Shown here: in pieces, positions 8,027-43,123 of the stretch | Numbering within the stretch: position 1 is the stretch's first letter | Layout of the letters: each line of letters begins with the position of its first letter | Source: an uncultured virus (IMG/VR IMGVR_UViG_3300020213_000028) | Taxonomy: Duplodnaviria > Heunggongvirae > Uroviricota > Caudoviricetes | DNA length: 64,000 nucleotides | Strand: one strand, 5' to 3' | Virus record (IMG/VR): IMGVR_UViG_3300020213_000028 | The notes under the pieces: generated by a model | Database searches by the model: none | Told to the model about the DNA's origin: nothing | The model's input: the letters and a program-made list of their open reading frames with translations, nothing else | Made by a program: the position numbers and the translations under genes

Positions 8027-9634
8027 TTAGGCAGCCATCGCCGACGGCTGGCCGAGGCCGCGCAGGTTCCGGAGCTTGTCTTTCCAGGACTTGACGACCT
8101 TGCTTTTGGGCACCGGTGGCGGCGCGCGGCCGACACACATCTGCGCAGCCCAGGCAAGGGCGTCGACCTGGTCATCGTGATTGCCACCGGCCTGGAACCG
8201 GAGCATTTCCCGCTCGAGCGCCGGGTACCACGGCGCCCCTTTGTTGAAGTAGACCTTCTTGTGCTGCATGCGGCCCTGCAACGGCGTCGCGCGCACGGCT
8301 TTGTCGGTGATCGGCTTCAGGAGCTCGATCGACGGGTAGAGCTGCCGCTCCTGGCAGCGTTTCTTCCAGATCGCGCTGATCGAGCGCCAGATCTGCCCAT
8401 CCTCCACGCCGATGCGCAGCGGGAGGTGCTTCTCATACGCGTCGAGCATGCGGTCGACGATCAAAAACCCATCCTCGGACTTGAAGCGGTCCATGTCGCG
8501 CACTTCGAGGCAGTCGTCGCTGTCCTGCACGACCGTGACGCCGGCGGTGCTGTCGGCCTTCTGCTTCTCAGTGATCGCGAAGTCCCAGGCTTGGTAGCAG
8601 TACCCCTTCGGGCGGTCGAGACCAGGGATCTGCACCACACTCAGGAACTGGTCCTTGGCGAAGAACACCCCGTCGTCGGGCACTGGGTTCTGCTGGTAGA
8701 GCGCCGACCAGTGGCGCTTGGTCAAGGTCTTCTCAATCCGCTTCAGCATCGGCAACGTGTAGCGATCCTCGTGCAGCGATTCGCCGACCTTGCGCACGAG
8801 GAGCGCGCCGGCGGGGATCTCATCGGTCGACGGCCGGTACAGGTTGTAGTCGGCGTCGAGGTACTCATCCTCTTCAGCAATCGCCGGGAACCGAATGATT
8901 TCGAACTGGTCGGCCTCAGGGTCCTCGGCCATCTGCAGCTGGATCCGGCCGGCGCCGTCGTCCTCGTTCCACCACGTTTGAATCCACAGCACGCCGCCGC
9001 CGGGAGAGAGCCGGGTGTAGGCCGTGGAGCCATACCAGTCCCACAGCTGGTCGCGGATCAGCAAGGAGTCCGCCTCGATCGCGTTCTTGATCGGGTCGTC
9101 GATCGCCAGGACGTGCGCGCCCTTCCCGGTGATGCCGCCTCCGACGCCGGCGGCAATGTAGCCGCCGCCCTCGGTCGTCAGCCACGCCTCGGTGGCCTGG
9201 CTATCCGGGTCTAACTTGCTGTTTTCAAAGGTTTTTTCGTACATCGGGTCGCGCAGCAGCGCGCGCACCTTGCGGGAGAACCCGGTCGGCAGGGAGATGT
9301 TGTAGGACGCCGCGATCAGCTCGTGGTGTGGGTACCGGCCGAGGTGCCAAGCCGGGAACATCTCGCTGGCCAGCGTGGACTTCCCGTGCCGCGGCGGCAT
9401 CAGAATCAGCAGCCTGGGCGACTGCTCCAGCTCGACGGCCTTGCTGAAGACCTCGAGCTTCCGACAGATCGCCTTGTGCACCCAGCCGGCCTTGTACCGC
9501 GGGCGGTGCTGCTCCACGAACGGGAGCAGGCGCCGGCGCTGCAGCTCGCGCTTCGCGACGGCCGCGCGCGCGGCCAGGGCGCGGTCAGCGATCCGATCGT
9601 TCTGGAATTTCGCGAAGTTAGGCGGGTATGCCAT
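8027..9634 (-). CDS. terL: terminase large subunit
   Basis: Walker A MPPRHGKS, GITGKGAHVLAIDDPIK, WSALYQQNP, AWDFA and HDDQVDA nuclease motifs. Confidence 0.95.
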   Translation of the reverse strand: MAYPPNFAKFQNDRIADRALAARAAVAKRELQRRRLLPFVEQHRPRYKAGWVHKAICRKLEVFSKAVELEQSPRLLILMPPRHGKSTLASEMFPAWHLGRYPHHELIAASYNISLPTGFSRKVRALLRDPMYEKTFENSKLDPDSQATEAWLTTEGGGYIAAGVGGGITGKGAHVLAIDDPIKNAIEADSLLIRDQLWDWYGSTAYTRLSPGGGVLWIQTWWNEDDGAGRIQLQMAEDPEADQFEIIRFPAIAEEDEYLDADYNLYRPSTDEIPAGALLVRKVGESLHEDRYTLPMLKRIEKTLTKRHWSALYQQNPVPDDGVFFAKDQFLSVVQIPGLDRPKGYCYQAWDFAITEKQKADSTAGVTVVQDSDDCLEVRDMDRFKSEDGFLIVDRMLDAYEKHLPLRIGVEDGQIWRSISAIWKKRCQERQLYPSIELLKPITDKAVRATPLQGRMQHKKVYFNKGAPWYPALEREMLRFQAGGNHDDQVDALAWAAQMCVGRAPPPVPKSKVVKSWKDKLRNLRGLGQPSAMAA

Positions 9635-10148
9635 CAGGCGGGTCGGTCTCTGGGGCGGGCAGCAACACCATCGCTGCGTCCTCCGAGCCGCCCTCGCCGT
9701 CTTCATCATCGGGGACCCTCACGGACTCCCCTTCAATGATCAGCTTGACCAGCTCTTCATCAGACAATTCTTCGATCTGGGCCACGGTGGTCGCGGCGCT
9801 CACTGAAACCTGCAGCTGCTTGACCTCCGGGGCGTAGTACCCACAAATTTTAGCCACCTCACGCAGCGCGGCGACCATCCCAATGGCCTCCGCCTGCAGT
9901 TTCGCCGCGTCGAAGGCCTCCATCAGCTTGTCTATGACGTCTTTTCTCGAAACGTCACTGACCTTTTCGACCCGAGCGCGCTCTTTTTCGATCGCTTCGA
10001 GGACGCGCGGGGTCTTCAGCAGCCGACAGGCCTCGACTTTCGGAAAGGCGTAGCCTGCCGCCTTGGCCGCCTGGCCCTGCAGCATTCCATGGCGGGCGTA
10101 GTTGATAACGAACGCCTTTTGCTGCGGCATTAGATCGGGGCTGCCCAT
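9618..10148 (-). CDS. terS: terminase small subunit
   Basis: QKAFVINY..QAAKAAGY..RLLKTPRV HTH motif directly upstream of terL. Confidence 0.85.
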   Translation of the reverse strand: MGSPDLMPQQKAFVINYARHGMLQGQAAKAAGYAFPKVEACRLLKTPRVLEAIEKERARVEKVSDVSRKDVIDKLMEAFDAAKLQAEAIGMVAALREVAKICGYYAPEVKQLQVSVSAATTVAQIEELSDEELVKLIIEGESVRVPDDEDGEGGSEDAAMVLLPAPETDPPDGIPA

Positions 10149-10196
10149 ATAAGCGCCTGATTATACGTGAGTCTGACCCCCAGTCTAACAAATGGT

Positions 10197-10225
10197 TTTA
10201 CGTGAAACGAACTTTAGACTAGAAT
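10197..10225 (+). promoter_or_regulatory. sigma70-like promoter
   Basis: TTTACG-17 bp-TAGAAT at the divergence point between the late (minus) and plus-strand genes. Confidence 0.6.
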
Positions 10226-10369
10226 GCAGGTCCTAGCTGTACCCCCTTCAGCAAAAGGCACCGCATGGCGCTGATCGAAATCCACCAGTCCCACTATCAT
10301 GGCGGTGGGGCCCGCCTGACCCAAATCGAGCGCAGTCTTGTTGTTCTACTTCTCCAAGGAAAACTCATC

Positions 10370-10600
10370 ATGAACGACCTTTCCGAACTGCAAGCCAAGA
10401 TGTCCGAGCTGGCCGCCACGGCCGCCGAGAGCAACGCTACGCTGGCCGGCCTCGCCCAAGCCATCCTCGACCTGAAGACCTCCAGCGACGTCCAAGCCGG
10501 CATCGACGAGCTCGTGGCTGAAGCGCAAGCCATCCTCGTCGGCATCGCCGCCGCGGAAGACGCAGCCGACGACCAGCTGCCGACCCCCCCGGTCGTATAA
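10370..10600 (+). CDS. small acidic coiled-coil protein
   Basis: AAGGA RBS before ATG 10370 (the ORF could extend to 10265). Confidence 0.6.
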   Translation: MNDLSELQAKMSELAATAAESNATLAGLAQAILDLKTSSDVQAGIDELVAEAQAILVGIAAAEDAADDQLPTPPVV

Positions 10601-10621
10601 ACCCGCAGTCTAGATCGAACT

Positions 10622-10649
10622 TTAGACCGCTCCGGCGGTCTAATTTTTT
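10622..10649 (+). terminator. Rho-independent terminator
   Basis: TTAGACCGC-tccg-GCGGTCTAA followed by T6. Confidence 0.7.
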
Positions 10650-10671
10650 GTCACCCACCCAGAGAGGAACC

Positions 10672-10986
10672 ATGAAAGTCACGAGACCCCAACTCGAAGC
10701 CCTGATCGAGCGCGCGGACTACGTCTGCTGGCCCAACAGCACCGTCGTCAGCTGCAAGATCACCCTGTACAACGGTTTCAGCGTCCTGGGCGAGGCCGCC
10801 TGCGTCGACCCGGCCGAGTTCGACCTCGCCATGGGCGAGAAGCTCGCCCACGCCGACGCCTTCCGCAAGCTATGGGTGCTCGAAGGGTACCTGCTGAATT
10901 TCGAGCGCTACATCACCCTATGTGAGCCGAGCATCCCCCCCTCCATGACCGCGTTCTACACCGCGCGGGCGAGAGGAGCCAAGTGA
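10672..10986 (+). CDS. N4 Gp49/Sf6 gp66 family protein
   Basis: signature CxITLYNGFSVLGEAACVDPAEFDxxxGEKLA..AFRKLWVLEGYLL. Confidence 0.85.
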   Translation: MKVTRPQLEALIERADYVCWPNSTVVSCKITLYNGFSVLGEAACVDPAEFDLAMGEKLAHADAFRKLWVLEGYLLNFERYITLCEPSIPPSMTAFYTARARGAK

Positions 10987-11928
10987 AAAAGAACATCCTG
11001 TTCCTGCTCGGCAGCGAGTGGCACAACGCCAACCTCGACCCCAACTACAAGTGGCTGGTCGTCGCCACCTACGCGGTGCTGACCGGCTCGGTCTTCGGCA
11101 TCTGGTGGGGGCTCACATGAGCGCCCTCGATCTGTTCGGCTACGCCGTCGGGCTCGCCCTCGGCGGGGCGGTCAGCTTCTTCTACTGGCGGGGCCGCTTC
11201 GAGAAACGAGCTGGGGCGATCCTCGACCTGCTGCGCTTCACCGACGCCACGATCGCCGGCAGCATGCGCCGGACCAAAGCACTTCGTACCCGGTACCAAG
11301 TACTGCGTGCTGCGATATGGAAGTGAAAATGCTGAAGAGTGATTTTTGGTGGTGCCCAGAGCTGGGGGAGCAAGTCGAGGCGGATCGGTTGAAAGTCCTC
11401 CAGGCCCGCCTCGACGACATCATCGGGGCCGCTGCGCGCCTCACCCCTAAGGAAACCGAATGTTAGCTATCGGTTTTTTCCTGCTCGCCTTCGGCATCGT
11501 GACGGCTCTCGTCTCTGATTACGCGAACCCCTACGCCACCAAGCTGGCCTGGTGGGACTGGCTCGCCGGGAACGCGGTCGTCGGCGGGGGCATCCTCGTC
11601 GTCGCCGGCATCGTCACTCTGCTGTGGCGGGTGGCGCCGTGAGCGCCTACCAGTGGAAGGTCGTCCAGGCCGTGGTCTGGTCGTTCGTGCTCGCCGGGCT
11701 TCTCCTCTTCGCGGGGGCGCTGCTGTGAGCGCCGGACGCTGCGCGAGGTGCGAGGCGCTCGAGGCGGGGCCTGCGTACATCGTACGAGGTACCTGGACCT
11801 TAGAAGAGGTGCGGGCGTTCATGGACTCGAGGCCCGACGAACTGAGAGTGAAGTACTCGGTACCGGGTACTTCGTTCGCCGTGGGTCGGCGGGACAGCGA
11901 CCGGCAGGGGAGCCTCGACTTCGAGTGA
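10983..11928 (+). CDS. cluster of small, mostly hydrophobic ORFs (10983-11120, 11117-11326, 11460-11642, 11725-11928)
   Basis: overlapping start/stop codons; hydrophobic stretches in three of them. Confidence 0.5.
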
Positions 11929-12162
11929 TGGCGCCCTAAAGGCGCATATATAGGACAGTAAGGGGGGTAAGGCCTCCTGTAAGGAGCCGCCGGTAGACGA
12001 GTTAGCGACAGGCGGTCGAGACACTACCCGGAATTTCGCAAATATTTTTTTTTGTGAAAAAGGCGTTGAGCAGCCCAGACAGCGGTCCCCCTGCCTCCGT
12101 AGGAGGCTCGGGGCCCGGGTCACTTCGGATTCGGCTTCGCCGAACCCAGAAGGGACCCGTCC

Positions 12163-12541
12163 ACACCCAGTACCCAGCACCCCGTACCCAGTACGAGGTT
12201 CTTCGTACTTGGTGCGGCGCTGGCGCGCTGCGCGCGCAGCAAGCGGTGTTCAGTGTAGTTGATGGAATCCTCCATCAGCACACACCGGAGCAACATCATG
12301 CGCAAAGCAACCAAGAAGCCCACGCCTTCCATGTTCGCACGCGTCGTACGCAGTACCAAGGACGCCGCGCTCAGTGCTACGCACGCAGTGCGTACACACG
12401 TGAGCATCAAGACGGTGGGCACCATCGTCGCTACCGCAGCAGCCACCGCGTTGGCGCTGCGCATCTAGTACTTCGTACCATGTTCCGAATACTCGGCACT
12501 TAGTACGAAGTACCGCGTACTTGGAACTTCGTACTTCGCGC
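12163..12541. repeat. 7-bp-period GTAC-core tandem arrays (largest copies 12170-12215 and 12468-12534)
   Basis: gtacTTCgtacCATgttcCGAatacTCGgcacTTAgtacGAAgtacCGCgtacTTGgaacTTCgtac. Confidence 0.85.
12298..12468 (+). CDS. hypothetical early protein
   Basis: GGAG RBS; basic N-terminus and hydrophobic C-terminus. Confidence 0.55.
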   Translation: MRKATKKPTPSMFARVVRSTKDAALSATHAVRTHVSIKTVGTIVATAAATALALRI

Positions 12542-12624
12542 GCGAGCGCAGTACGCCGTGCGGCTGGGGCCTTCGGGCCCTTTCCGCATGCAGCCGACTT
12601 GGCTGCCTACGCCCGGAGAACACC

Positions 12625-12831
12625 ATGACCAAGCCCCAACTCGAAGCAGCCTTGGCTGCAGCATCCATCGCCCAAATCCGCGCTGAACAACAGCTCGCCG
12701 AAGCACAAGTGCGCATCGACAACGCCATCACAACGTTCAAACGCATGCGCACCGAGAACACCGAGCTCAGCATCAAGCTGTGCGGACAGATCAAGCGCGG
12801 CAACTTGTTGCGCGCGCGGATCGCTGCGTGA
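12625..12831 (+). CDS. hypothetical coiled-coil early protein
   Basis: GGAG RBS after a repeat element. Confidence 0.65.
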   Translation: MTKPQLEAALAAASIAQIRAEQQLAEAQVRIDNAITTFKRMRTENTELSIKLCGQIKRGNLLRARIAA

Positions 12832-12913
12832 CCATCAAGGCTTGTTCCGCGCTGCGCGCGGAGCAAGCCATTTTTGGTGTAGCCGGCTTGGCTACTTCAC
12901 TCTGGAGATTGCA

Positions 12914-13165
12914 ATGCTACTCACCGCCGACGAAGTTCGCCTCGCGAATTGGATCTCCGAAATTGGCGAAGATCCCGCATATTACGAGTGGCAATGGGTT
13001 CGCCTTACCGGCGAACACCTCACCCGCGCACAATTCCACGGCATCGAAACCGTTGTCGACCTCTGGGACAACATGCTCCGCGCCCACTGTGACGGGTACC
13101 CCGCCGCCGCACGCGCCATGCACGACACCTACAAGCTATGGGCTGAGGACGGCCTGCCAGCGTAA
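12914..13165 (+). CDS. hypothetical early protein
   Basis: GGAG RBS after a repeat element. Confidence 0.65.
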   Translation: MLLTADEVRLANWISEIGEDPAYYEWQWVRLTGEHLTRAQFHGIETVVDLWDNMLRAHCDGYPAAARAMHDTYKLWAEDGLPA

Positions 13166-13229
13166 CCATTAGGGCCTCACGGCCCTTTTGGCATGCAGCC
13201 GACTTAGCTGCATTCACTGGAAGAACAAC

Positions 13230-13511
13230 ATGCAAACCAAGGTCGTGCACTGCAAGAAAGAAGCATTCGACGTCTATATCGGGCGCCCAGGAAAATGGGG
13301 CAACCCCTTCAACATCGGCCGCGATGGCGATCGCGCAAGCGTGATCGCAAAGCACAAAGCCTGGATCGTGGAGCAGCCGGAACTCATGGATAGCCTGCAC
13401 GAAATCCAAGGCAAGCGCATCGCATGCTGGTGCGCTCCGCTCGCCTGCCACGGGAACACGTTGGCCGAACTCGCAGATGAGTACGCACCGGCAGCTCGGG
13501 GCGCACCCTAA
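13230..13511 (+). CDS. DUF4326 domain protein
   Basis: VVHCKK..DVYIGRPGKWGNPF..GKRIACWCAPLACHG signature. Confidence 0.85.
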   Translation: MQTKVVHCKKEAFDVYIGRPGKWGNPFNIGRDGDRASVIAKHKAWIVEQPELMDSLHEIQGKRIACWCAPLACHGNTLAELADEYAPAARGAP

Positions 13512-13593
13512 CAACCAAAGGCTTGTTCCGCGCTGCGCGCGGGGCAAGCCATTTTTGGTGTAGCCGGCTTGGCTACATCCACTGGGAGACGCC

Positions 13594-14186
13594 ATGCGTC
13601 GCACCACTGCTTACACGCTTTACTCCTTCGCCGCGGTCCTATGGACCATCGGCCTCACCCTCGCCTTCGACCAGATCCTGGTCGCCATCCTTCACTAATT
13701 GGAGATCATCATGCGCCTCTCTTTCTTCATCGGCTTCACCCTCCTGGCCTTGATCGGCATGGCCGTATCCGGCGCCACGCTCTGGGCCACCGTCGCATAC
13801 TTCGGCCTCTTGCCGACCATCGCGATGTACACCCTCGCCGCCGTTGCAACCGGCATCCAGGTCTACTTCACCACCACCCGGATGAAGTAATGCTGGCCTG
13901 GGGGCTGGTCGTATTCATCGGCCTCGTCATGATCTTCTGGGATCTGAACCCAGTGACCAAGGCGAGACTCATGGGCAGCCCGCTCATCATTCACATCGTT
14001 GTGATTGGCAGCGGCCTCATGATCCACGGCGGATCCGCCGACGGAGCCATGGCAGCCATCTCAAGCGGCGTATTCAGCGCGCTGTACGTGCGCTATCAGC
14101 GCCGCATGAATGGCTACATCAAAGGCGGCGCTTGGTATCCCGGAGCTATGAAAACCCGCGATCCGCGCACCGCAGCAACTGCATGA
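13594..14186 (+). CDS. three small membrane proteins (13594-13698, 13711-13890, 13890-14186)
   Basis: RBS-preceded or coupled hydrophobic ORFs. Confidence 0.55.
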
Positions 14187-14248
14187 GCATCGGGCCCTCG
14201 GGCCCTTTGCGCATGCAGCCAACCGGTTGCACCACCAGGAGCAACGCC

Positions 14249-14578
14249 ATGTCCATCACATTCACGCCCGCCAAAGGCACTGTCGTCACGTACGTCTACT
14301 ACGATGACGCAGCCACCGCGCCAGACCACAACAACGGCGTGATCCGCTTCGAACACACCGAGCCCTCGTGCAACACACACAGCAGCAACGGCATCGACAT
14401 CATCAAGGCCTTAGGCCTTAGAGCCGACTACTGCGGCCACATCCCCGTCGTCAAGCTAACGGAATGCATGCGCCGCCTGCGGCACGAATGGCCGGTCGAA
14501 CTGATCCGCTACCAAGACTCACTCATGCAAGTCATGAGCTGCGCCATATATCACGCCTGCGAAGTGCATTGGGCATGA
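14249..14578 (+). CDS. hypothetical early protein
   Basis: AGGAG RBS within a repeat element. Confidence 0.65.
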   Translation: MSITFTPAKGTVVTYVYYDDAATAPDHNNGVIRFEHTEPSCNTHSSNGIDIIKALGLRADYCGHIPVVKLTECMRRLRHEWPVELIRYQDSLMQVMSCAIYHACEVHWA

Positions 14579-14640
14579 GCATCGGGCCTTCGGGCCCTTT
14601 GCGCATGCAGCCGACCGGTTGCACCACCAGGAGCAACGTC

Positions 14641-15099
14641 ATGTACACAGTCAAAGCGCAAAACTGGATCGACAGCGGCAACGATGACGGCCGTGTGAAA
14701 CGCGAAACTAAGATCGAAGAAACCTTCACCACCCTCGACGACGCCATAACTCTATACATCAAATTACAAAACAAGTGCCAGCCCAACGAACCCGACGAAG
14801 ACTCAGAATACCGAGACCTCGAAAACCTATATCACACGGTGTCCATTTACCAAAATCTCGAAGACCTGTATCACATGGTATTCATCACCTACAAAGGCTT
14901 CGAATTCTGCAGCACCTACTACGGCCTCGGTTTCAGTCCCGACGACGAAGAAATCACCCTGCGGCAAGCGTACATCGAAAACGAAGTCACTCTAACCCTC
15001 AACCGGTTCTGTGCCCTCACAGAACAGAACCCAAACTGCGAACGCTTCCGCGGTGCAGCAAGAAAACTCCTCGAGGCCTTCGCGCACAGCCTTCTGTAA
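14641..15099 (+). CDS. hypothetical acidic early protein
   Basis: AGGAG RBS; short internal duplication DLENLYHTV/NLEDLYHMV. Confidence 0.65.
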   Translation: MYTVKAQNWIDSGNDDGRVKRETKIEETFTTLDDAITLYIKLQNKCQPNEPDEDSEYRDLENLYHTVSIYQNLEDLYHMVFITYKGFEFCSTYYGLGFSPDDEEITLRQAYIENEVTLTLNRFCALTEQNPNCERFRGAARKLLEAFAHSLL

Positions 15100-15182
15100 A
15101 AAACTCAAAGGCTTGTTGCGCTCTGCGAGCGCGGCAAGCCTTGCTTTTTGTAGCCGACTTGGCTACCCAACTGGAGTGAACG

Positions 15183-15335
15183 ATGGACAACGACTCGTGG
15201 ATCGACCGCATGCTCAACGCTTGCACCGATGCATTATGGTGCGATCCACTCCCCGACCCCTTTGATCTGGTTGCCCAGAAAGAAGAACAGCAGATCAAGG
15301 ACATCGGCGAAAACTTCGCCGGACATAAGGTCTAA
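15183..15335 (+). CDS. hypothetical 50-aa protein
   Basis: GGAG RBS after a repeat element. Confidence 0.5.
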   Translation: MDNDSWIDRMLNACTDALWCDPLPDPFDLVAQKEEQQIKDIGENFAGHKV

Positions 15336-15403
15336 CCCACGGGCGCTTCGGCGCCCTTTTTGGCTGTAGCCAATTCCGCGCTACTCACTGGAGAACTTGT
15401 ATC

Positions 15404-16159
15404 ATGACCAACCCTATGAAGTTCGCTTCCGCCCTCCTCCTGGCCCTCGAATCCATGTCGGCCGCCTCCCGCTCGCTCGTCCTGCGCACCTGGGCGAACA
15501 CGAGCACCTTCCAGCTCATCGGCAAGGTCAACAGCGCCGTCACCACCGAACAGGCCATCATCAAGGCCGGCGGCATCGACGCCTACAACGAACTCCGCGG
15601 CCAAGACACGGATCGAGACCCGCCCGCGGGGCTCGAAGCGCGCATCACGATGGCCCAACTCGCGGAGTTCAACGCTGCGGCTATCGGGGCCGCCGACACG
15701 GTCGCCGAAGGACTCGACCGCGAAGAGCGCCGGTTCGCGTACGCCATGCCTCTGACGGACGCATTCGACTTCATGGCCACGCCCAAGAGCAAGGTCACGA
15801 AGGACCAAATCGAAGCGGTCCGCGAGGAAGAGGACTCAATCACCGACGAACAGGCGATCGCCCTGCTCCAGCAGATGCAGCGCGAAGACGCGGCCAAGCT
15901 GGAAGAGAACCGCGAACTGGTCCTGGAGCACGTGGCCGCTGGCCGCTCCGTCCACTGGGACGGCGAACGGGAGGTCGCCGACATCCTGGCACACCTGCCA
16001 GAGAACTACCGCGAGGCGATCATGGCCAAGAGCATCGGCAAGATCGTGGACGAGCTGGCGCGCTCCCTGCCGTACGCACTGAAAGGCGTGCCGGGCGTCA
16101 GCGCCAAGCGCAAGCTGCTCAAGGCCGACCTGCCAGTCATGGAGGCACTGGCAGCATAA
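15404..16159 (+). CDS. hypothetical alpha-helical protein
   Basis: 251 aa, GGAG RBS, strong GC3 codon bias. Confidence 0.75.
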   Translation: MTNPMKFASALLLALESMSAASRSLVLRTWANTSTFQLIGKVNSAVTTEQAIIKAGGIDAYNELRGQDTDRDPPAGLEARITMAQLAEFNAAAIGAADTVAEGLDREERRFAYAMPLTDAFDFMATPKSKVTKDQIEAVREEEDSITDEQAIALLQQMQREDAAKLEENRELVLEHVAAGRSVHWDGEREVADILAHLPENYREAIMAKSIGKIVDELARSLPYALKGVPGVSAKRKLLKADLPVMEALAA

Positions 16160-16165
16160 TTCAAG

Positions 16166-16195
16166 AGCCAAGGGGTCACACCCTTGGCTTTTTTT
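16166..16195 (+). terminator. Rho-independent terminator
   Basis: AGCCAAGGG-gtcaca-CCCTTGGCT followed by a T-run. Confidence 0.8.
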
Positions 16196-16226
16196 ATGCC
16201 GGCGACTAAAAAGCCAGGATCAGACC

Positions 16227-16545
16227 CGACGTAACGAAACCACGTAACGGTCCTAAACGCACGCAAGCCAATGATTTTAAACAAAACCAGAAGCGCAATG
16301 CGAAAATACACATTGTTTCAGGTTCACCTACCGCTCACACACCCACACTACCCACACCCCTATTTGAGTATTAAGTAAGATCATTTTTAAAAATATAGGT
16401 CAACCTAAAACAATGTGAAGTATCGCATCAGCCTATGGCTTTTGTTGATTCTAAAGACGAATTGACATAACGCTCTGAGTTTCGCCCTTTCAAACTTCGT
16501 TACGTCGTACGAAGCATGTAGTACCTCGTACCTCGTACCGGGTCC
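16227..16545. other. putative replication origin (nested inverted repeats around an AT-rich core)
   Basis: 12-bp IR 16227-16238/16496-16507; 22-bp IR (20/22) 16309-16330/16396-16417; non-coding and AT-rich. Confidence 0.5.
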
Positions 16546-16581
16546 ACAGGAACTTCACTCTAACTTAGAGGTCACACCCCC

Positions 16582-17151
16582 GTGATCCCCGCCTTGCGAC
16601 GCAACGCCTATGAACGCTATCCGTGGGAATACCTCAGCGTCGGCGAGTCCTTCTTTACTGACACCACCGGTGCCAGCATCCGCCAGCTGGCTGACGACAC
16701 CGGCCGGCGCCTGGGCAAAACTTTCACCGCCCAACGCGAGGGTACTGGTTGGCGTGTGCGTCGGACTGAACTAAGCCAAGACTCCCGCCGTCGCGCCTAC
16801 GCCCGCTACCCCTGGGACACGCTGAAACCCGATGAGTCCTTCTTCACCGACACCGCCGGCTCAGGCATCCACATCCTGGCCGCCGCAGCCAGCAACCGCC
16901 TGAAGCGAGTCTTCTATGTCGCTCGCGAAGGTGACGGCTGGCGGGTCTCAAGGCGCGAGCCGACCCAAGCGACCCGCCGCCTGCGCCAGCTGAACCCCAA
17001 GATCTTCGACGTCTACCCTTGGAAAACCATGGCTGTAGGCGACTCCTTCCCCACCACCACCTGTTCCGTCGACACGCTGTGCCCTGAGATCGGCACCCTG
17101 CTCGGCCGGACCTTCGAGTTCATTGATGAGCACGTCTGGAGAACAGCATGA
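16582..17151 (+). CDS. protein with three tandem YPW..(L/M)xxx(E/D)SF domains, putative DNA-binding
   Basis: repeats YPWEYLSVGESFF, YPWDTLKPDESFF, YPWKTMAVGDSF, each ending in W(R/V)xR-like segments. Confidence 0.7.
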   Translation: MIPALRRNAYERYPWEYLSVGESFFTDTTGASIRQLADDTGRRLGKTFTAQREGTGWRVRRTELSQDSRRRAYARYPWDTLKPDESFFTDTAGSGIHILAAAASNRLKRVFYVAREGDGWRVSRREPTQATRRLRQLNPKIFDVYPWKTMAVGDSFPTTTCSVDTLCPEIGTLLGRTFEFIDEHVWRTA

Positions 17152-17327
17152 CCCGTCGCGCCGATAAACAACACCGCCTGCAGGCTCTGATCGCTGTGAA
17201 ATTTAGACACCTGGGCTATACAAACAAACAGATCGCTGAGCAGCTCGCCATAAACGTGAAAACCATCCCGGCCCTCATATCTCTGGGAGCTCGGATGGCG
17301 CCCTTCGAAAACGAGAACTCAGTATGA
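17148..17327 (+). CDS. small HTH protein (LuxR/sigma region 4-like)
   Basis: 59-aa ORF below the track cutoff; LGYTNKQIAEQLAINVKTI. Confidence 0.65.
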   Translation: MTRRADKQHRLQALIAVKFRHLGYTNKQIAEQLAINVKTIPALISLGARMAPFENENSV

Positions 17328-17683
17328 CGTCCCAAGAACTAATCGCCAAGCTTGACGAAATCCCTGGAAACGACCCTGAAGTAGCCCACCTCCGCGCCGA
17401 CACCCTCTTACGCGCCTATCTCGCCGAACACAACCCTGCTGTAGACGCTGCCTATCGCCGCGTAAAAGGCCGCTGCGACTGGTGGGCCTACGCTTGAGCG
17501 GCTGGCTCATCGCCCTCACCGGCCTGATCTACCTGTACGTCTGTGGCGAGCAGGCGTACCTGCGCAACTGGCCCCTGGCCCTGCTGTACTTCGGCTACGC
17601 CTTCGCCAACATCGGCGCCTACTGGCTCGCCGTCAAAGGACCTTAAACAGGAACTCAGTTCTAACATTGGAGTCAGACCTGCC

Positions 17684-18049
17684 ATGAACTTCCTCGACGA
17701 AACCATAGACGCAATTCTCCATAGCGGCCACACCCTCACTGACCTGATGTTCATCGGTAGTGAAGCCGTGGGCGATAGCCCCGGCTATTCGTGCACTTGG
17801 GACGAATTCAGAGCCTTAGCTAACTTCGACTATGACAACGGCTACGGCGGACAAGCGATCGCCACCGACCTGATCATCATGTTCACCGACGGGCAAAAGC
17901 TATGGCGCAATGAGTATGACGGCAATGAGTGGTGGGAATTTAGCCACCCCTTTAGCCCGCCCAACGCCCCAAACCCTATCCAGCGCTTCAAAGACGACAT
18001 GAGCTGGGCGTCCCTACACCAACTGCACGAAAACAACGGAGAATACTAG
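17684..18049 (+). CDS. hypothetical phage protein
   Basis: GGAG RBS; DYDNGYGGQ..LWRNEYDGNEWW. Confidence 0.65.
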   Translation: MNFLDETIDAILHSGHTLTDLMFIGSEAVGDSPGYSCTWDEFRALANFDYDNGYGGQAIATDLIIMFTDGQKLWRNEYDGNEWWEFSHPFSPPNAPNPIQRFKDDMSWASLHQLHENNGEY

Positions 18050-18595
18050 TGAAAAACATCAACTGGCCCTTCCTCACCGCCATGCTCGGCCTCGCATTCT
18101 TTTGGGCGCTCGCCGGTGTGATCATGTGGCGCGCCGTACAGTGAACCTCGTACCTAGAACGGAGTACGCACCATGTCCATCCACATAAAAGATCGCTGGA
18201 TACCTGACCGCGCCTTCCCGATAGCTGAAGCCCGCTCTTTTTATGGGCTCTGCCGAGGAAATTTAATGCCCGACGACCTCGATCTCTTCGCCGGCCTGCC
18301 GCTGCTAGAGTGGGGCCCCACCCTGATAACTCATTACCACCCCGCTCCGTACCGTTCGGCGACCTGCCAGTCCAACGCACCCACCAAACTGCTGCTTCCG
18401 CCCTAAACATTCCTCTTGAGGAACCTCCATGAATGTTTACCTTGTTAAAGACGCTACGAACGCCTCTGGGCGAATCTTGGGCGTATTCCGATACCTAGAT
18501 GATGCGGAACATCTCGCCGACGCCCTCGACGATGCCACCATCATCACTGAACGAACGCTCATCTTCGGTCAGGCCTCAATACGCGGATTCAACCT

Positions 18596-18901
18596 ATGAC
18601 TACCTCCATCGCGTATGCCGTGCTGGCCGAACTGGTGGCGATCAGAGAGTGGGACCCCCGCACCATGTTAGCCGCGTCCGAGTATGACGAGTTCTGCGCC
18701 AGGTGTGACGCCGCATGGGCCGCCGCCCGCGCGTGCGTGGCGCGTGGCGATGTGACGGTGCCACGGGAGCCAACCATTGCAATGGTGCAGGCGGGCATGG
18801 GGGCGCATGTGCTGAACGGCGGCGCTGTTGAGTCCGCTCCGCCGATATTCGCCACATGGCGAGCCATGCACGACGCCGCCACCAAGGAGAACACGAAATG
18901 A
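18596..18901 (+). CDS. modular hypothetical protein (ends AATKENTK)
   Basis: shares modules with 18956, 21593 and 22116; VPREPT..M..A motif. Confidence 0.65.
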   Translation: MTTSIAYAVLAELVAIREWDPRTMLAASEYDEFCARCDAAWAAARACVARGDVTVPREPTIAMVQAGMGAHVLNGGAVESAPPIFATWRAMHDAATKENTK

Positions 18902-19349
18902 GCGGCGACAAGGTACGGCGCGTGGTTTTATGGGCTCTGCCGAGGAAATCTAATAATGAATCCGACCGCGTATGAGGCGCTGGCCGAACTTGTGGTGATT
19001 CGTGATATTAAGCACCGCGAGAACATGACCGCGCCCGAGTATGACGAGTTTTGCGCCAGGTATGACGCCGCCTACGCCGCCGCTCGCGCGGTCGTGGCTG
19101 CGGGGCCGGGGAGCGATGCGTTGCTACGGTTCGCCGGGGAGTGCCTTGGCCCATGGCCCAAATACCTACACGACATGAGGGGCGAGATGCAGGAGCGATT
19201 GCACAAAGCGGGATTGATTGAAGAACGAGTAGCGACGGAAGCGGGTGACGAATACGACGTTGGTGATACCGTCTACTCCCTCACGGAACTCGGACTCGCC
19301 GCCACCAAGGAGAACACGAAATGAGCGGCGACAAGGTACGGCGCGTGGT
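18874..19349 (+). repeat. 53-bp exact direct repeat spanning RBS and ATGA junction (18874-18926 and 19297-19349)
   Basis: cgccgccaccaaggagaacacgaaatgagcggcgacaaggtacggcgcgtggt occurs twice; variants at 19620, 20386, 21854, 22116 and 22365. Confidence 0.9.
18956..19324 (+). CDS. modular hypothetical protein (ends AATKENTK)
   Basis: N-terminus paralogous to the 18596 ORF. Confidence 0.65.
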   Translation: MNPTAYEALAELVVIRDIKHRENMTAPEYDEFCARYDAAYAAARAVVAAGPGSDALLRFAGECLGPWPKYLHDMRGEMQERLHKAGLIEERVATEAGDEYDVGDTVYSLTELGLAATKENTK

Positions 19350-19620
19350 ATGCGCTGCAATCCGCAGCGCAGGCGGCGACCTTTTGCTAGGCATCCGCCA
19401 TTACGGCAAGGACATGTGCGAGCAAATTGACGCGCGCCGCGACGGCACCAGGTTCTGCCATCGCCACGACCCTGATCAAGGCTTTGTCGATCAGTACGGC
19501 GTTTACATGACGCGCGAGAAAGCCTACGAAGTAGCGCACGCTGTGGGCCAAATCATTCACCCCGAAGCGTGCGGCGAAGGTCTTGATGGGCCGCGGCTAT
19601 ACAGCGAAGGACTCTACTGA
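19321..19620 (+). CDS. hypothetical phage protein
   Basis: VVCAAIR..GIRH..QGFVDQYGVYMTREKA..LYSEGLY, a recurrent small phage family. Confidence 0.7.
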   Translation: MSGDKVRRVVCAAIRSAGGDLLLGIRHYGKDMCEQIDARRDGTRFCHRHDPDQGFVDQYGVYMTREKAYEVAHAVGQIIHPEACGEGLDGPRLYSEGLY

Positions 19621-19711
19621 TGAGCAATGACAAGGTACGAGCTGCGGCGCAGGTGGACTCGTCAGTCAAGGCCGTGCGCGCATCAATTGTCACGGGCCCT
19701 CGAGGACAGAA

Positions 19712-20413
19712 ATGACACCAGTGAAGGACCGTGGGGTGAGCCTTTCAGCGGCCGAAAATTTGCTTCTCACGATTCAAGGCCAGCGATTCTCGACGATTTT
19801 GGCCGATCCACCGTGGCAGTTCCAGAACCGGACTGGCAAGATGGCCCCGGAACACAAGCGCCTGAATCGGTATATGACTCTCTCTCTTAACGAAATTAAG
19901 TCGCTGCCAGTTTTGCCGTTGCTTCGCGATACCGCGCATTGCTACCTGTGGGTACCAAACGCCCTGCTGCCAGAGGGTATAGAAACCCTTAGGGCATGGG
20001 GCTTCCACTACAAGAGCAACATCGTTTGGCACAAGGTGCGTAAGGATGGCGGGCCGGACGGCCGAGGCGTCGGATTCTACTTTCGCAACGTCACGGAAAT
20101 TGTGCTATTTGGGGTGCGCGGAATCAACGCACGGACGTTAGCGCCGGGGCGTCGTCAGGTGAACATTATTCGTACGATGAAACGCGAACACAGCCGCAAA
20201 CCCGATGAGCTGTACCCGATCATTGAGGGATGCAGCCCTGGGCCATTTTTGGAGCTATTTGCACGCGGCCAGCGAAAAGGATGGGCAGTATGGGGCAATC
20301 AGGCAGAGGAATATTTTCCCACCTGGAACACCTATTCAAATCATTCTCAAGCCGAACAAAAGCCCAGAAGTTACGCCTCGTCGGTCGCCGCCACCAAGGA
20401 GAACGCGAAATGA
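19712..20413 (+). CDS. MT-A70 family N6-adenine DNA methyltransferase
   Basis: ILADPPW motif IV, HCYLWVPN, IVWHK..GVGFYFRNVTE, REHSRKP, LELFARG..WGNQA. Confidence 0.92.
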   Translation: MTPVKDRGVSLSAAENLLLTIQGQRFSTILADPPWQFQNRTGKMAPEHKRLNRYMTLSLNEIKSLPVLPLLRDTAHCYLWVPNALLPEGIETLRAWGFHYKSNIVWHKVRKDGGPDGRGVGFYFRNVTEIVLFGVRGINARTLAPGRRQVNIIRTMKREHSRKPDELYPIIEGCSPGPFLELFARGQRKGWAVWGNQAEEYFPTWNTYSNHSQAEQKPRSYASSVAATKENAK

Positions 20414-21372: not shown

Positions 21373-22403
21373 GCAATGCCCACGACGATTTTTATCGAGG
21401 CGCGCTGTTCTGCCTGCGCGTGATCTTGGACTGCGACGGCAACGGCAACACCATTTACAAGGAGGTCGTTTTGAACATCGGATTGGACGATCTTTGCCGT
21501 GTAGCCCGGAAAGAAGGCGACCTGAAATGGTCAGGCCTGGATTGGTATATGCGCCAAGAACGCCGCCATCAACGCCGAAATCGGGGCGCGCCATGAGCGG
21601 GCCGGTGCGCGAGGCGTTCGAGGCGTGGTCAGAAATGTTTTGCCTCGCATTGGATCGACGCCCGACTGGCACATACGAGTCAATGCGCACGCACGACACA
21701 TGGTGCGCCTACGTCGCTGGCCGCGATGCGGCGGACGCCGCGAAGGTGGCGGTGCCGAGGGAGCCGACAGGAGCGATGATACGGGCCGCTGAAAGCTACA
21801 TCGCTTTAGCGCATGCCGAACATGGAATATGGACACACGCGAACCATTGGCGAGCCATGCACGACGCCGCCACCAGGGAGTCCAACAAATGAGCAATGAC
21901 AAGGTATGGGGGGGCGGGATGAGAAGGACAGTTGCTCGCGTTGTCGTGTGCCGCGTTGCCGTGTTTGTTTTTGGTGTGTCCGCCCTCGTTGGATTCGTCG
22001 GATTAGCTGCAATCGTGTTCGCGGAGTCTCCGGGGTGGGGGTTTCTAGCGTTGTTTTTTGTTGGCGTCTTTGGCTTGTCATACCCACGACTGTTTGATTA
22101 TGCGGAGGGCGAGAAATGAGCAACGACAAGGTACGGGTTGCGGCGCAGGAGTTGGTAGAGGCACTTGACAACACCCACTGGTCTAGCTGGCAAACAACCG
22201 CAAGATTTTCGATACAACAAGACGCTCTTCGCGACGCGCTGGCCGCCGCCCGCGCGTGCGTTGCGCGGGGCGATGTGGCAACGGTGCCGAGGGAGCCGAC
22301 AGAGGCGATGCTTCTCACCGTCCAACGATTACTGCCGCGATGGGAAGCAAAAGCGATGTGGGGCGCCATGCACGACGCCGCCACCAGGGAGTCCAACAAA
22401 TGA
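21369..22403 (+). CDS. four coupled small modular ORFs (21369-21596, 21593-21892, 21889-22119, 22116-22403)
   Basis: all joined by ATGA overlaps; MSNDKV starts and AATRESNK ends recur. Confidence 0.6.
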
Positions 22404-29691: not shown

Positions 29692-29769
29692 GTCCTTTTC
29701 GTCTAGAGGCTTAGGACGCTGCATCCTACGGGACCAGAGACGTCGGTTCGAATCCGGCTGAGGACTCCA
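29692..29769 (+). tRNA. tRNA-like gene with tRNA-Glu body and aberrant anticodon arm
   Basis: acceptor GTCCTTT/TGAGGAC-T-CCA, D-arm GTC-TAGAGGCTTAG-GAC, T-arm GTCGG-TTCGAAT-CCGGC; anticodon arm is 19 nt capped by TACG. Confidence 0.8.
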
Positions 29770-42664: not shown

Positions 42665-43123
42665 CTAGTCCTTACTCCTAACGCGCCCTTTTTTTAGCCA
42701 GACTGTATCCACCACCCCGCCTGTGCAGGTGTCCACTTCCTGCGCTACCGCGATGGCTTCCTCCGGCTCGTGCCCCAGGAGCATCGCCGCCAGCGCGGCC
42801 TGCCGCCCGGTGCCGATGGCCCAATAGTCATCCTCCACCACGTCAGGCACGCAGTCGGTGTCATACACCAGCAGCGAGCCCTTCGCGGTGAGCACCAGCG
42901 CCGCCAGCGAGTGCTTCTTGTTGAACTCCGGCGCCTTCACCGTCTTCGACGTGAGCGAGGCCCGATACCACGCCCAGAATTTGACGATCGCTGGGTTGTC
43001 GCCGGCCACACCGACAATCGACCCGTTGATCTCGCGCAGCTTGATGCAGCTGTAGCTGACGTCCCCGTCGGTCACCTTGCGGTCCGCACTCATGCACTGG
43101 CGGTTCGCCGCGATGGTGGTCAT
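42665..43123 (-). CDS. Ntn-hydrolase, HslV/proteasome beta-like peptidase
   Basis: MTTIAA N-terminus, ADRKVT, GVAGD, WAIGTG..ALAAM, D..TGG. Confidence 0.8.
   Translation of the reverse strand: MTTIAANRQCMSADRKVTDGDVSYSCIKLREINGSIVGVAGDNPAIVKFWAWYRASLTSKTVKAPEFNKKHSLAALVLTAKGSLLVYDTDCVPDVVEDDYWAIGTGRQAALAAMLLGHEPEEAIAVAQEVDTCTGGVVDTVWLKKGRVRSKD

Follow-up and report, generated by a model that had tools for sequence, protein, structure and literature searches.

Nine covarying double-hairpin elements in front of small genes of an uncultured podovirus-like phage

Organisation of the array

The window, that is, the whole 64,000-nucleotide stretch of DNA analysed here, belongs to a podovirus-like phage that is only distantly related to Pseudomonas phage KPP25. 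Between positions 12219 and 15403, nine elements lie on its + strand, and all positions given for them in an earlier note on this sequence were verified in the window. Each element follows the same order, with hairpin 1 succeeded by a pyrimidine-rich spacer, hairpin 2, a GGAG-type ribosome site and an ATG. The eight intergenic gaps (62-156 nt from stop to ATG) hold one element each, with the GGAG-type site placed 5-11 nt before the ATG. The features of the locus are as follows.

12030..12218, + strand: conserved non-coding leader (T-run, conserved blocks and variable small hairpins), outside the repeated unit
12219..12297, + strand: element e1, front type; hairpin 1 at 12219-12240 (GC stem, TGC loop), long stem at 12244-12287 with a 9-bp hairpin 2 core at 12258-12279, then the ribosome site
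12298-12468, + strand: g1, ATG at 12298, after e1
12566..12624, + strand: element e2, short type, TTCG loop; hairpin 1 at 12566-12581, hairpin 2 at 12590-12606 (43.9 bits)
12625-12831, + strand: g2, after e2
12839..12913, + strand: element e3, long type, TGC loop; 14-bp hairpin 1 at 12839-12869, U5, hairpin 2 at 12879-12895, then the ribosome site
12914-13165, + strand: g3, after e3
13171..13229, + strand: element e4, short type, TCAC loop; hairpin 2 at 13195-13211
13230-13511, + strand: g4, DUF4326
13520..13593, + strand: element e5, long type; hairpin 1 at 13520-13550, hairpin 2 at 13560-13576 (49.2 bits); heads g5-g6-g7
13594-13698, + strand: g5, first of the tightly packed g5-g6-g7 block
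13711-13890, + strand: g6, middle of the block
13890-14186, + strand: g7, last of the block, conserved in relatives
14192..14248, + strand: element e6, short type, CTCG loop; hairpin 2 at 14215-14230, including one G.U pair
14249-14578, + strand: g8, after e6
14584..14640, + strand: element e7, short type, TTCG loop; hairpin 2 at 14607-14622
14641-15099, + strand: g9, after e7, with a paralogue in strain L078
15108..15182, + strand: element e8, long type; inner stem changed to GCGCTC/GAGCGC with the TGC loop kept, hairpin 2 at 15150-15166 (z -5.6)
15183-15335, + strand: g10, after e8
15341..15403, + strand: element e9, short type; hairpin 1 at 15341-15356, textbook terminator-like, with U5; degenerate hairpin 2 at 15366-15384
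15404-16159, + strand: g11, after e9, conserved in relatives
16171..16185, + strand: terminator-like hairpin with a long T-run, 3' of g11 (terminator scan), the probable end of the operon

DUF4326, in g4, is the sole family found among the array genes. The genes between the elements are unrelated, as the earlier note had claimed, and the 11 array proteins displayed no mutual similarity by BLASTP at E<=0.01. Relatives of the module adjoin ArdC and RadC in bacterial contigs; from its position and from these neighbours, the array is plausibly an "early" or "host-takeover" one.

Conserved structure and gene exchange at the elements

Hairpin 1 occurs in two types. The long type (GGCTTG..CAAGCC) was matched at 12839, 13520 and 15110 against 0.05 matches expected, a count of three that was reached by 0/100 shuffles, while the short type (a GC stem with a TTCG, TCAC or CTCG loop) is located at 12566, 13171, 14192, 14584 and 15341. 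The hairpin 2 motif gave seven + strand matches in the 64 kb, six of them between 12590 and 15150 and one, at 29314, an outlier that probably arose by chance; a looser pattern adds e4 at 13195. In 100 mononucleotide shuffles, searched on both strands, the mean was 0.46 and the maximum 3. A covariance model of hairpin 2 further identified eight + strand sites in the window at E<0.01, all within 12576-15394, and nothing else convincing. Since this model misses e1 and scores e9 at a weak 18.6 bits, the array comprises seven clear copies, a degenerate one (e9) and one of a different, front-type form (e1); e3, for comparison, reached 48 bits and a fold z-score of -5.2. The nine-copy double-hairpin architecture is therefore present as described earlier, with motif counts that shuffling does not reproduce. 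No element was matched by Rfam, either in the whole window at the gathering threshold, where a tRNA at 29692 was the only match, or in 11800-16400 at E<=1 (0 matches).

Pairing in hairpin 2 is retained in 101/102 cells across 17 copies from 7 sources, seeds that were chosen by a pattern which admitted non-pairs too. Two pairs are changed on both sides (UA:10/CG:7 and CG:16/UA:1), and the six G.U cells are all in the + strand sense. Within the window alone, the two hairpin 2 types could go back to one double change that was then copied. Among relatives, the stem sequence becomes fully different (GTAGCC, GCAGCC, GTAGTC, GATGAGC and CGGG types) with the pairing kept, and loop lengths range between 3 and 7. 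Of the 14 pairs predicted for hairpins 1 and 2, 7 stay paired through two-sided changes across 10 internal copies of the long type. Fold z-scores were more negative on the + strand in 9/9 elements; the minimum free energy (MFE) was lower on the + strand in 5/9 and slightly lower on the - strand in 4/9. The compensatory changes are borne out by these comparisons, and so is the plus-strand bias of the wobble pairs, both of which the earlier note had pointed out.

Gene content varies at the element boundaries. In strain L078, whose flanks are 96-99.8% identical to the window, window positions 13176-13519 are missing, which is exactly e4 plus g4, and an additional cassette composed of e7 and a g9 paralogue is present; the junction falls just 5' of hairpin 1, after ..ACCAT(T/C)A. 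A back-joint from 14936/14940 to 14584 was found in contigs of 4/4 runs (Logan contigs, DNA runs); coverage gaps of run X9 over g3 and g4 were left out of the evidence. A more distant relative (L003, 64% TerL) carries four elements vs nine, with different genes between them and with e9 absent. These gains, losses and duplications exactly at the boundaries agree with the cassette-like recombination handle that the earlier note had proposed. The hairpin-2 17-mer was found in 74 stretches of viral contigs, one of which (L017) lies in a relative; about half of the others were inspected, and each of these proved to be an isolated site in coding-like sequence. The nearest named phage, KPP25, gave only 18.4 and 13.7 bits with the hairpin 2 model, both opposite the primase-gene strand, so that, as far as this model sees, the array appears not to be a Kochitakasuvirus feature.

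Leader, ribosome-site pairing and terminator signals

A single "front" copy of the element heads the early operon in 11-12 relatives, and e1 is homologous by alignment to the fronts of 11 of them. The leader at 12030..12218 has a counterpart upstream of the front element in every relative aligned (alignment A6, 12 sources) and is also found in the MAG loci L099 and L101; its consensus fold contains short helices only, with one short helix upstream of the element. In the fronts, the ribosome site and start codon are paired with the spacer and with the conserved CAAGCC in a stem tipped by hairpin 2, giving composite helices of ~17-20 bp with bulges. MFE folds place CAAGCC and the spacer against the SD..AUG region around hairpin 2 in 10/12 fronts, and in the remaining two (the window's e1 and L079 r1) the ribosome site is paired in part only. 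On A6, 88.0% of 267 cells were paired, as compared with 34-54% when the partners were slid, with eight pairs changed on both sides; helix 2 was 85.5% paired and contained three such pairs. The pairing percentage and the covariation score were each reached by 0/500 shuffles and the number of pairs with a change on both sides by 61/500, for a structure that was derived from the very sequences tested.

When 12 fronts and 8 internal long-type copies were aligned in 20 rows, a GCGC-TGC-GCG core and a CAAGC proved invariant or nearly so. The window's long-type internal elements are homologous copies of the leader end, in which hairpin 1 has been lengthened into a terminator-like stem. The earlier note had foreseen neither hairpin 2 as the tip of a ribosome-site stem nor the copying of the operon's own leader end.

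Pairing of the ribosome site varies among the internal copies. In the window, the probability of a paired SD was 0.88 for e2, 0.85 for e9 and 0.74 for e8, intermediate for e6 (0.57) and e7 (0.46), and weak for e3, e4 and e5 (0.22-0.34). In e2, the UUUCCG spacer pairs with CGGAGA and the ribosome site follows hairpin 2; in the MFE fold of e9, UUUUUGG pairs with CUGGAGA. In the relatives' internal copies, the SD is paired in both the MFE and centroid structures in 5/9, with z of -3.5 to -4.6 for three, and such pairing is absent from the folds of both L091 copies. A ribosome site paired with an upstream strand that covaries with it, as in an SD-sequestering operator, was found in the fronts.

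The terminator role, one of several that the earlier note had suggested, is partly supported. Stem-loops are present in 9/9 elements, and e3, e5, e8 and e9 fit the simple consensus of a GC-rich stem followed by at least five T in eight; the other five (e1, e2, e4, e6 and e7) fail it, with 3-4 U after the stem. In the relatives, the spacer is not U-rich but UUCCUGGU-like and complementary to the ribosome site. The terminator scan gave a total of 13 for the region, which is not above shuffles (9.7 ± 3.2).

Interpretation and comparison with known systems

We infer, with a little more confidence than doubt, that the elements function as RNA-level cistron-boundary modules, each combining an attenuator or decay barrier with a translational gate, and that they also serve as recombination linkers. 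Each element would act in the + strand RNA as the boundary module of one early-operon gene cassette. Hairpin 1, located 5-12 nt past the upstream stop codon, would close the upstream cistron, as a leaky intrinsic terminator where a U-tract is present (e3, e5, e8 and e9) and as a barrier against 3' decay where it is not. The spacer, hairpin 2 and the GGAG site would fold together as a single stem-loop unit that has hairpin 2 at its tip and allows the spacer to pair with the ribosome site; this unit may set or gate translation of the next gene. It was presumably copied from the 3' end of the leader of the same operon. Relatives with a plain operon carry this leader end once, and there it would lock both the ribosome site and the start codon of their first gene. 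Being repeated, the 60-75-nt unit would supply homology and safe junctions for gene exchange, and genes may be inserted, deleted and duplicated as hairpin1-spacer-hairpin2-RBS-gene units. Against this reading, nine efficient terminators in series would starve the distal genes, barring promoters or antitermination.

Each element, or each long-type element, could instead be a terminator-promoter unit, as in the true PeSLs of T4-type phages, and every cassette would then be its own transcription unit. The promoter would be of an unrecognised host type, or hairpin-dependent (N4- or Frpo-like), using the GC stem with its TGC/GCA triloop and CAAGCC as the initiation region. Re-initiation is attractive where stem-loops stand between every gene, and the triloop hairpin and CAAGCC are conserved across the 20 rows in sequence, beyond structure. 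They also head the operon, a position with no preceding gene to be terminated and one for which no upstream sigma-70 promoter was found either: by eye, the leader alignment A6 revealed no consistent -35/-10 boxes, and the operon promoter was not located. N4-type hairpin promoters possess a 5-7 bp stem and a 3-nt loop on the template strand with a purine at the loop centre, and a GNA triloop with a C-G closing pair has unusual stability in DNA. Here, the template-strand loop reads GCA, with C at its centre, and the format of a stem with a 3-nt loop is displayed by e1, e3, e5 and e8 only (4/9), whereas hairpin 1 of the other five copies is of another kind, with a 4-nt loop and lacking CAAGCC. 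The outer-stem U.G pairs become A.C mismatches on the template strand, and CAAGCC is accounted for by its pairing with the start-codon region. A promoter scan of 9500-20000 gave four promoter-like sites and no sigma-70-like site on the + strand of 12219-15403. No RNA polymerase family was detected in scans of 19+33+47 ORFs; the 2620-aa virion protein had no match among PDB sequences at E<=1, and its nearest clusters in a feature search were polyvalent-protein (LPD) types, all below 0.9. We consider a promoter in each cassette distinctly unlikely, and the N4-type single-stranded DNA hairpin promoter offered as an alternative in the earlier note is not supported. More speculative still, and improbable in our judgement, is that the leader and front element form a portable "first-entry" expression module common to lytic phage early operons and chromosomal ArdC/RadC islands. 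The triloop hairpin and CAAGCC would then be a hairpin-dependent start signal (N4-/Frpo-like in principle) for an unknown polymerase, or for the host polymerase on extruded or single-stranded DNA, multiplied so that each anti-defence cassette fires alone right after DNA entry.

RNA processing, by RNase III in the manner of T7 or by RNase E at sites flanked by protective hairpins, is compatible with the boundary-module reading, and we regard it as unlikely only as the main role. Cuts within the composite stem or the spacer would yield stable monocistronic RNAs and free the ribosome site, and a locked ribosome site requires some route of opening. The composite helices of the fronts (~17-20 bp with bulges), the 14-16 bp long-type hairpin 1 and the single-stranded U-rich spacer between the hairpins of e3, e5, e8 and e9 all suit such enzymes, but RNase III requires longer helices than the 6-7 bp of hairpin 2 by itself or the 5-6 bp of hairpin 1 in the short type. 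Sites acting as double-stranded DNA, either palindromic operators for a dimeric regulator (stoperator-like) or recombinase sites (integron attC-like), strike us as hardly credible. Hairpin 2 is indeed a near-perfect palindrome with half-sites strongly conserved in the window, and small unrelated ORFs with structured repeats resemble an integron cassette array; however, among relatives the stem sequence of hairpin 2 changes completely under preserved pairing, its loop varies from 3 to 7, and the G.T positions break the palindrome on one strand only. Moreover, the junction after ..ACCAT(T/C)A contains no GTTRRRY-type core, and the ORFs scanned yielded neither an integrase nor a recombinase family.

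If the elements are indeed RNA-level boundary modules, the PeSL principle, namely portable regulatory linkers that allow small early genes to be shuffled with their expression intact, would have been invented a second time and independently, by uncultured phages of an unrelated lineage. The linkers would here be built from RNA devices (an attenuator and a ribosome-site gate) and not from a promoter. The element is a compact, well-delimited natural part of 60-75 nt and may serve as a metagenome marker for the variable, probably anti-defence, early genes of this lineage. The presence of the leader module before bacterial ArdC/RadC genes hints at a first-minutes-after-entry device common to phages and other mobile elements.

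Several known systems share individual properties with the elements. The RNase III sites of the T7 early genes and of the lambda N leader are structured elements in a host-transcribed early operon, and there, too, a leader stem hides the ribosome site of the first early gene. The predicted 17-20 bp composite helices of the fronts resemble such sites, which are, however, single irregular helices of ~20 bp and not one sequence repeated, unlike the two hairpins in nine copies described here. In the initiation hairpins of the T4 genes e and soc and in fourU/ROSE thermometers, the SD is paired with an upstream pyrimidine- or U-rich strand; these are single-gene devices, whereas the elements are modular, possess a preceding hairpin and are multiplied along the operon. 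Integron attC sites differ by their R''/R' cores (RYYYAAC / GTTRRRY), which the junctions do not contain, and no integrase family accompanies the array among the ORFs scanned. In e1 and the long type, the GC stem of 5-7 bp with its 3-nt loop recalls the N4 format; in contrast to that format, the loop centre on the template strand is a pyrimidine, five of nine copies have no hairpin of this type and no virion RNA polymerase was found. N4 and Frpo promoters likewise place small hairpins before genes first expressed after DNA entry, and the relatives of the module beside ArdC and RadC recall plasmid leading regions. Frpo/ssi is a long imperfect hairpin that rebuilds the -35, -10 and UP elements (Samuel and Burstein 2024, PMC11541004); by that description, the elements and leader differ in possessing neither a -35/-10 pair nor a long duplex-mimicking hairpin.

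The PeSL cassettes of T4-type phages are the closest known kind. PeSLs are described as carrying a strong sigma-70-like promoter with an AT-rich upstream region, and as flanking small genes, of no known function, in a plastic early region where insertions, deletions and replacements occur among close relatives (Arbiol et al. 2010, PMC2839356; Comeau et al. 2014, PMC4122927). Compared with PeSLs as so described, the elements had no sigma-70-like promoter found in them, possess a second, covarying hairpin within a stem that pairs with the ribosome site, appear to derive from the leader and belong to a podovirus-like lineage distant from KPP25. Like the PeSLs of these accounts, they are intergenic units that extend from stop to ATG and end in a Shine-Dalgarno site, and the ORFs they flank are inserted, deleted or replaced at the units (L078, L003 and the back-joint in 4/4 runs).

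The phage genome and its array of two-hairpin elements

The window spans all or most of the genome of a tailed phage. Its minus strand carries P22-like portal, large and small terminase and capsid genes at 1–10.1 kb and a virion block including a 2620-aa protein at 42–64 kb, and its plus strand at 10.3–42 kb encodes an MT-A70 methylase, a DUF5906 primase, a helicase, a family A DNA polymerase and a PD-(D/E)XK nuclease. The nearest named phages are the Pseudomonas phages KPP25 and phiR18, with a primase identity of only 39%, and comparison of the array region with 50,697 phage records revealed no nucleotide-level relative except for a 70-nt stretch within g4. The array and other features of the genome are as follows.

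12030–12218: conserved non-coding leader of ~190 nt, upstream of the front element
12160–12215 and 12469–12545, both orientations: clusters of a short GTAC-containing repeat (GTACTTCGTAC and its complement) flanking g1
12219–15403, plus strand: nine elements, e1 (front-type), e3, e5 and e8 (long) and e2, e4, e6, e7 and e9 (short), each with hairpin 1, a pyrimidine-rich spacer, hairpin 2, a GGAG-type Shine–Dalgarno sequence (SD) and ATG
12298–16159, plus strand: putative early genes g1–g11, served by the elements
16200–16580: AT-richer non-coding gap beyond the terminator-like hairpin of the operon; sigma-70-like hexamers at 16419–16390 on the minus strand; an AT-rich gap at the matching position in the viral relative L003
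18857–22142: ~40–53-nt repeat (ribosome-binding site and first codons M-S-N/G-D-K-V-R) in six copies preceding successive genes; this and a 199-nt repeat at 21584 and 23164 may be paralogous gene starts or another type of cassette linker
29692–29766: tRNA gene, the sole Rfam match in the window
43120–50982, minus strand: the 2620-aa virion protein, alanine-rich, with an HExxH motif, three tandem 66-nt repeats (49292–49517), a C-terminal third matching phrog_30152 and polyvalent-protein (LPD) clusters as feature neighbours (all <0.9); probably an ejected polyvalent protein

All nine elements described in the earlier note are present at the positions given there, each lying between the stop codon of one gene and the ATG of the next. 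The eight internal element-bearing gaps span 62–156 nt, and the tightly packed g5, g6 and g7 (gaps of 12 and −1 nt) have no element between them. The long hairpin-1 pattern was matched three times against 0.05 expected, and the hairpin-2 pattern gave seven plus-strand matches (shuffle mean 0.46), six of them at 12590–15150; a looser version also picked up e4. A covariance search, which the earlier note had proposed, was carried out with a model trained on 17 hairpin-2 segments and recovered eight plus-strand sites at E<0.01, all within 12576–15394, with no comparable match across the other 60 kb of the window. Under this model e9 was weak (18.6 bits), and e1 was missed because its second hairpin differs in sequence. 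The proposed Rfam search returned no element match at gathering thresholds, nor at E≤1 over 11800–16400. BLASTP detected no mutual similarity among the 11 proteins encoded between the elements, in line with the earlier note; a family was found for g4 only (DUF4326).

Pairing, strand and descent of the elements

Across the 17 hairpin-2 segments, 101 of 102 cells hold a standard pair. The second stem pair is U-A in 10 segments and C-G in seven, with no mixed cases, and another is C-G in 16 and U-A in one. Six cells hold wobbles, every one of them G.U in the plus-strand sense and thus A.C if taken from the complementary strand; a single C.A cell runs the opposite way. Between groups the stem is completely replaced (GATGAGC/GCTCATC, GTAGCC/GGCTAC, GCAGCC/GGCTGC, GTAGTC/GACTAC and a CGGG type), which argues for structure and against a protein site on duplex DNA. 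Pairing also survives both-side changes at seven of 14 predicted pairs among 10 internal long-type copies from six sources. When each element was folded on both strands, the fold z-score was more negative on the plus strand in all nine and the fold energy lower in five; the inner GC stems, which pair perfectly on either strand, are uninformative on this point. Taken together, the modelled folds and wobbles give moderate support to a structure in the plus-strand transcript.

Relatives were searched for by terminase in viral contigs, which yielded one informative relative, L003 (TerL identity 64%), and with the conserved membrane protein g7 as query, which yielded 20 metagenome loci and six loci in MAG contigs. 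In L080, L082, L083, L088, L089, L090 and L097, the g7 homologue lies in a tightly packed operon with no internal elements, and a single element heads the operon downstream of the conserved leader. The leader was seen in the window, L079, L080, L082–L084, L086, L088–L090, L095, L097, L099 and L101. It holds a T-run and the conserved blocks CCTCA.., CACAGG, cTTCGGATT and GGGGtCCC, its small hairpins vary in sequence among relatives, and it has neither an Rfam match nor a recognisable sigma-70 promoter. Scanning revealed no sigma-70-like site on the plus strand in or ahead of the array, and none was readable in the aligned leaders. The GTAC repeat clusters, which may be protein-binding sites, recur upstream of the leaders of L003, L082, L083, L099 and L101.

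The internal long-type elements descend from the end of this leader: 12 fronts and eight internal long-type copies align as homologous, and these 20 rows show little or no variation in the GCGC-TGC-GCG core and the CAAGC that comes after it. In the fronts CAAGCC lacks its 5′ partner, and in 10 of the 12 minimum-free-energy (MFE) folds it pairs, together with the pyrimidine-rich spacer, with the SD, the bases 3′ of it and part of the start codon, so that hairpin 2 becomes the tip of a 17–20-bp composite stem. This SD pairing is only partial in e1 and in the L079 element r1. In an alignment of the 12 fronts with their leaders, the front structure was paired in 88.0% of 267 cells versus 34–54% with slid partners, and none of 500 shuffles reached the observed pairing or covariation score; eight pairs carry both-side changes, a count reached by 61 of the 500 shuffles.

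Similar pairing was found in internal copies. In those of L084, L086, L095 and L101 the spacer UUCCUGGU is fully paired with ACCAGGAG around hairpin 2 (fold z −3.5 to −4.6). Among the nine internal copies folded from relatives, the ribosome site was paired in both MFE and centroid structures in five, in the MFE alone in two, and in neither structure in the remaining two, both from L091. For the window's own copies, the pairing probability of the site was 0.88 for e2, 0.85 for e9, 0.74 for e8, 0.57 for e6, 0.46 for e7, 0.34 for e3, 0.26 for e5 and 0.22 for e4. In the window lineage the spacer has turned U-rich; it keeps the GGAG pairing via U.G and U-A pairs while also forming a terminator-like tail for hairpin 1, and e3, e5, e8 and e9 pass a terminator scan. 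Omitting the long hairpin-1 5′ arm is predicted to refold e3 into the front-type long stem, and in L095 and L101 the freed 3′ arm would lengthen the anti-ribosome-site helix to the start codon. The 3′ arm thus has two possible partners in these models and could possibly act as a switch, for example if a ribosome stopping 5–12 nt upstream covered the 5′ arm.

The front module extends beyond the present phage lineage, as it occurs in MAG contigs. Two large contigs of a proteobacterial MAG (L099 and L101) carry this leader and front element together with the first gene(s) and a g7 homologue, followed by ArdC (ArdcN and zincin peptidase), RadC and a YqaJ-like gene (L101 5200–9200; L099 5240–7700). 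In L101 the flanking genes are of host type, encoding a histidine kinase and a solute-binding protein at one end and RecG at the opposite end, and the locus looks like a small island or mobile-element remnant sharing the phage early module. The metagenome contig L085 has an ArdC-like frame after g7, as read by eye from the sequence rather than by family scan. The position of the module ahead of anti-restriction genes supports a putative role early after entry.

Gain, loss and duplication of cassettes

The cassette organisation proposed in the earlier note was borne out at the element boundaries. L003 has four elements versus nine in the window, and these precede its counterparts of g1, g2, the g6-g7 block and g10; it lacks e3-g3, e4-g4, e6-g8, e7-g9 and e9, and a different small gene lies ahead of its last element. 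L078, a strain variant of the window phage (flank identity 96–99.8%), lacks 13176–13519, a segment bounded exactly by the initial base of the e4 hairpin 1 and the base preceding the e5 hairpin 1, and has an extra cassette comprising an e7 copy and a shorter g9 paralogue. A back-joint from 14936/14940 to 14584, matching this duplication, was found in contigs of all four further DNA runs, and in one run another ribosome site and gene follow the e3 hairpin 2 and another gene end precedes hairpin 1; these contigs derive from mixed communities and weigh less than L078. From these differences, the unit of change comprises hairpin 1, spacer, hairpin 2, ribosome-binding site, gene, stop codon and a few bases.

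Other differences were observed in the same loci. L078 carries a 199-nt insertion at window 11729/11731 and, in the 5′ end of g1 at 12303/12305, 76 differing letters; this second difference also appears in a contig of DNA run X9. In L079 (~5503), the g2 homologue r2 has ATA where g2 has ATG in an otherwise conserved start region; this may reflect either an unusual start codon or an error in sequencing.

Proposed role, alternative explanations and known systems

With modest confidence, we read the elements as RNA-level boundary modules, in which hairpin 1 would end or attenuate transcription and protect the upstream message, the spacer–hairpin 2–SD unit would control access to the next ribosome site, and the repeated unit would double as a recombination linker. 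Of this reading, the analysis shows the structures, their covariation, the origin from the leader end and the gain, loss and duplication of whole cassettes; termination, gating and how recombination proceeds are inferred. The cassette and RNA interpretations of the earlier note are retained here, and its N4-type hairpin-promoter alternative is not. A promoter inside each element, making true terminator-promoter cassettes, would fit the triloop hairpin and CAAGCC being conserved in sequence and placed at the operon head, but a polymerase gene was not found in scans of the ORFs or in searches with the 2620-aa virion protein, the triloop hairpin is absent from five of nine copies, CAAGCC is otherwise explained by pairing with the start-codon region, and the outer stems favour the plus strand; we consider such promoters distinctly unlikely. 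Processing by RNase III or E is compatible with boundary modules, and as their main role it seems unlikely. Duplex-DNA operators or attC-like sites are very improbable given the stem turnover with retained pairing, the varying loop lengths and the wobbles confined to one strand; moreover, the scanned ORFs yielded no integrase and the junction is without attC cores.

Known systems for comparison include the T7 early RNase III sites, the lambda N leader, the T4 e and soc initiation hairpins and the N4 promoters. Frpo (PMC11541004) is a further one. Of the described systems the nearest is the PeSL of T4-type phages, a repeated stop-to-start-codon unit with a stem-loop and SD that flanks ORFans in early plastic regions, where close relatives differ by indels (PMC2839356; PMC4122927). 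The present elements evolve like PeSLs, but scanning found in them no promoter of the kind by which PeSLs are defined. They carry in addition a second stem, which covaries and is linked to the ribosome site, and are thus a PeSL variant rather than members of the class.
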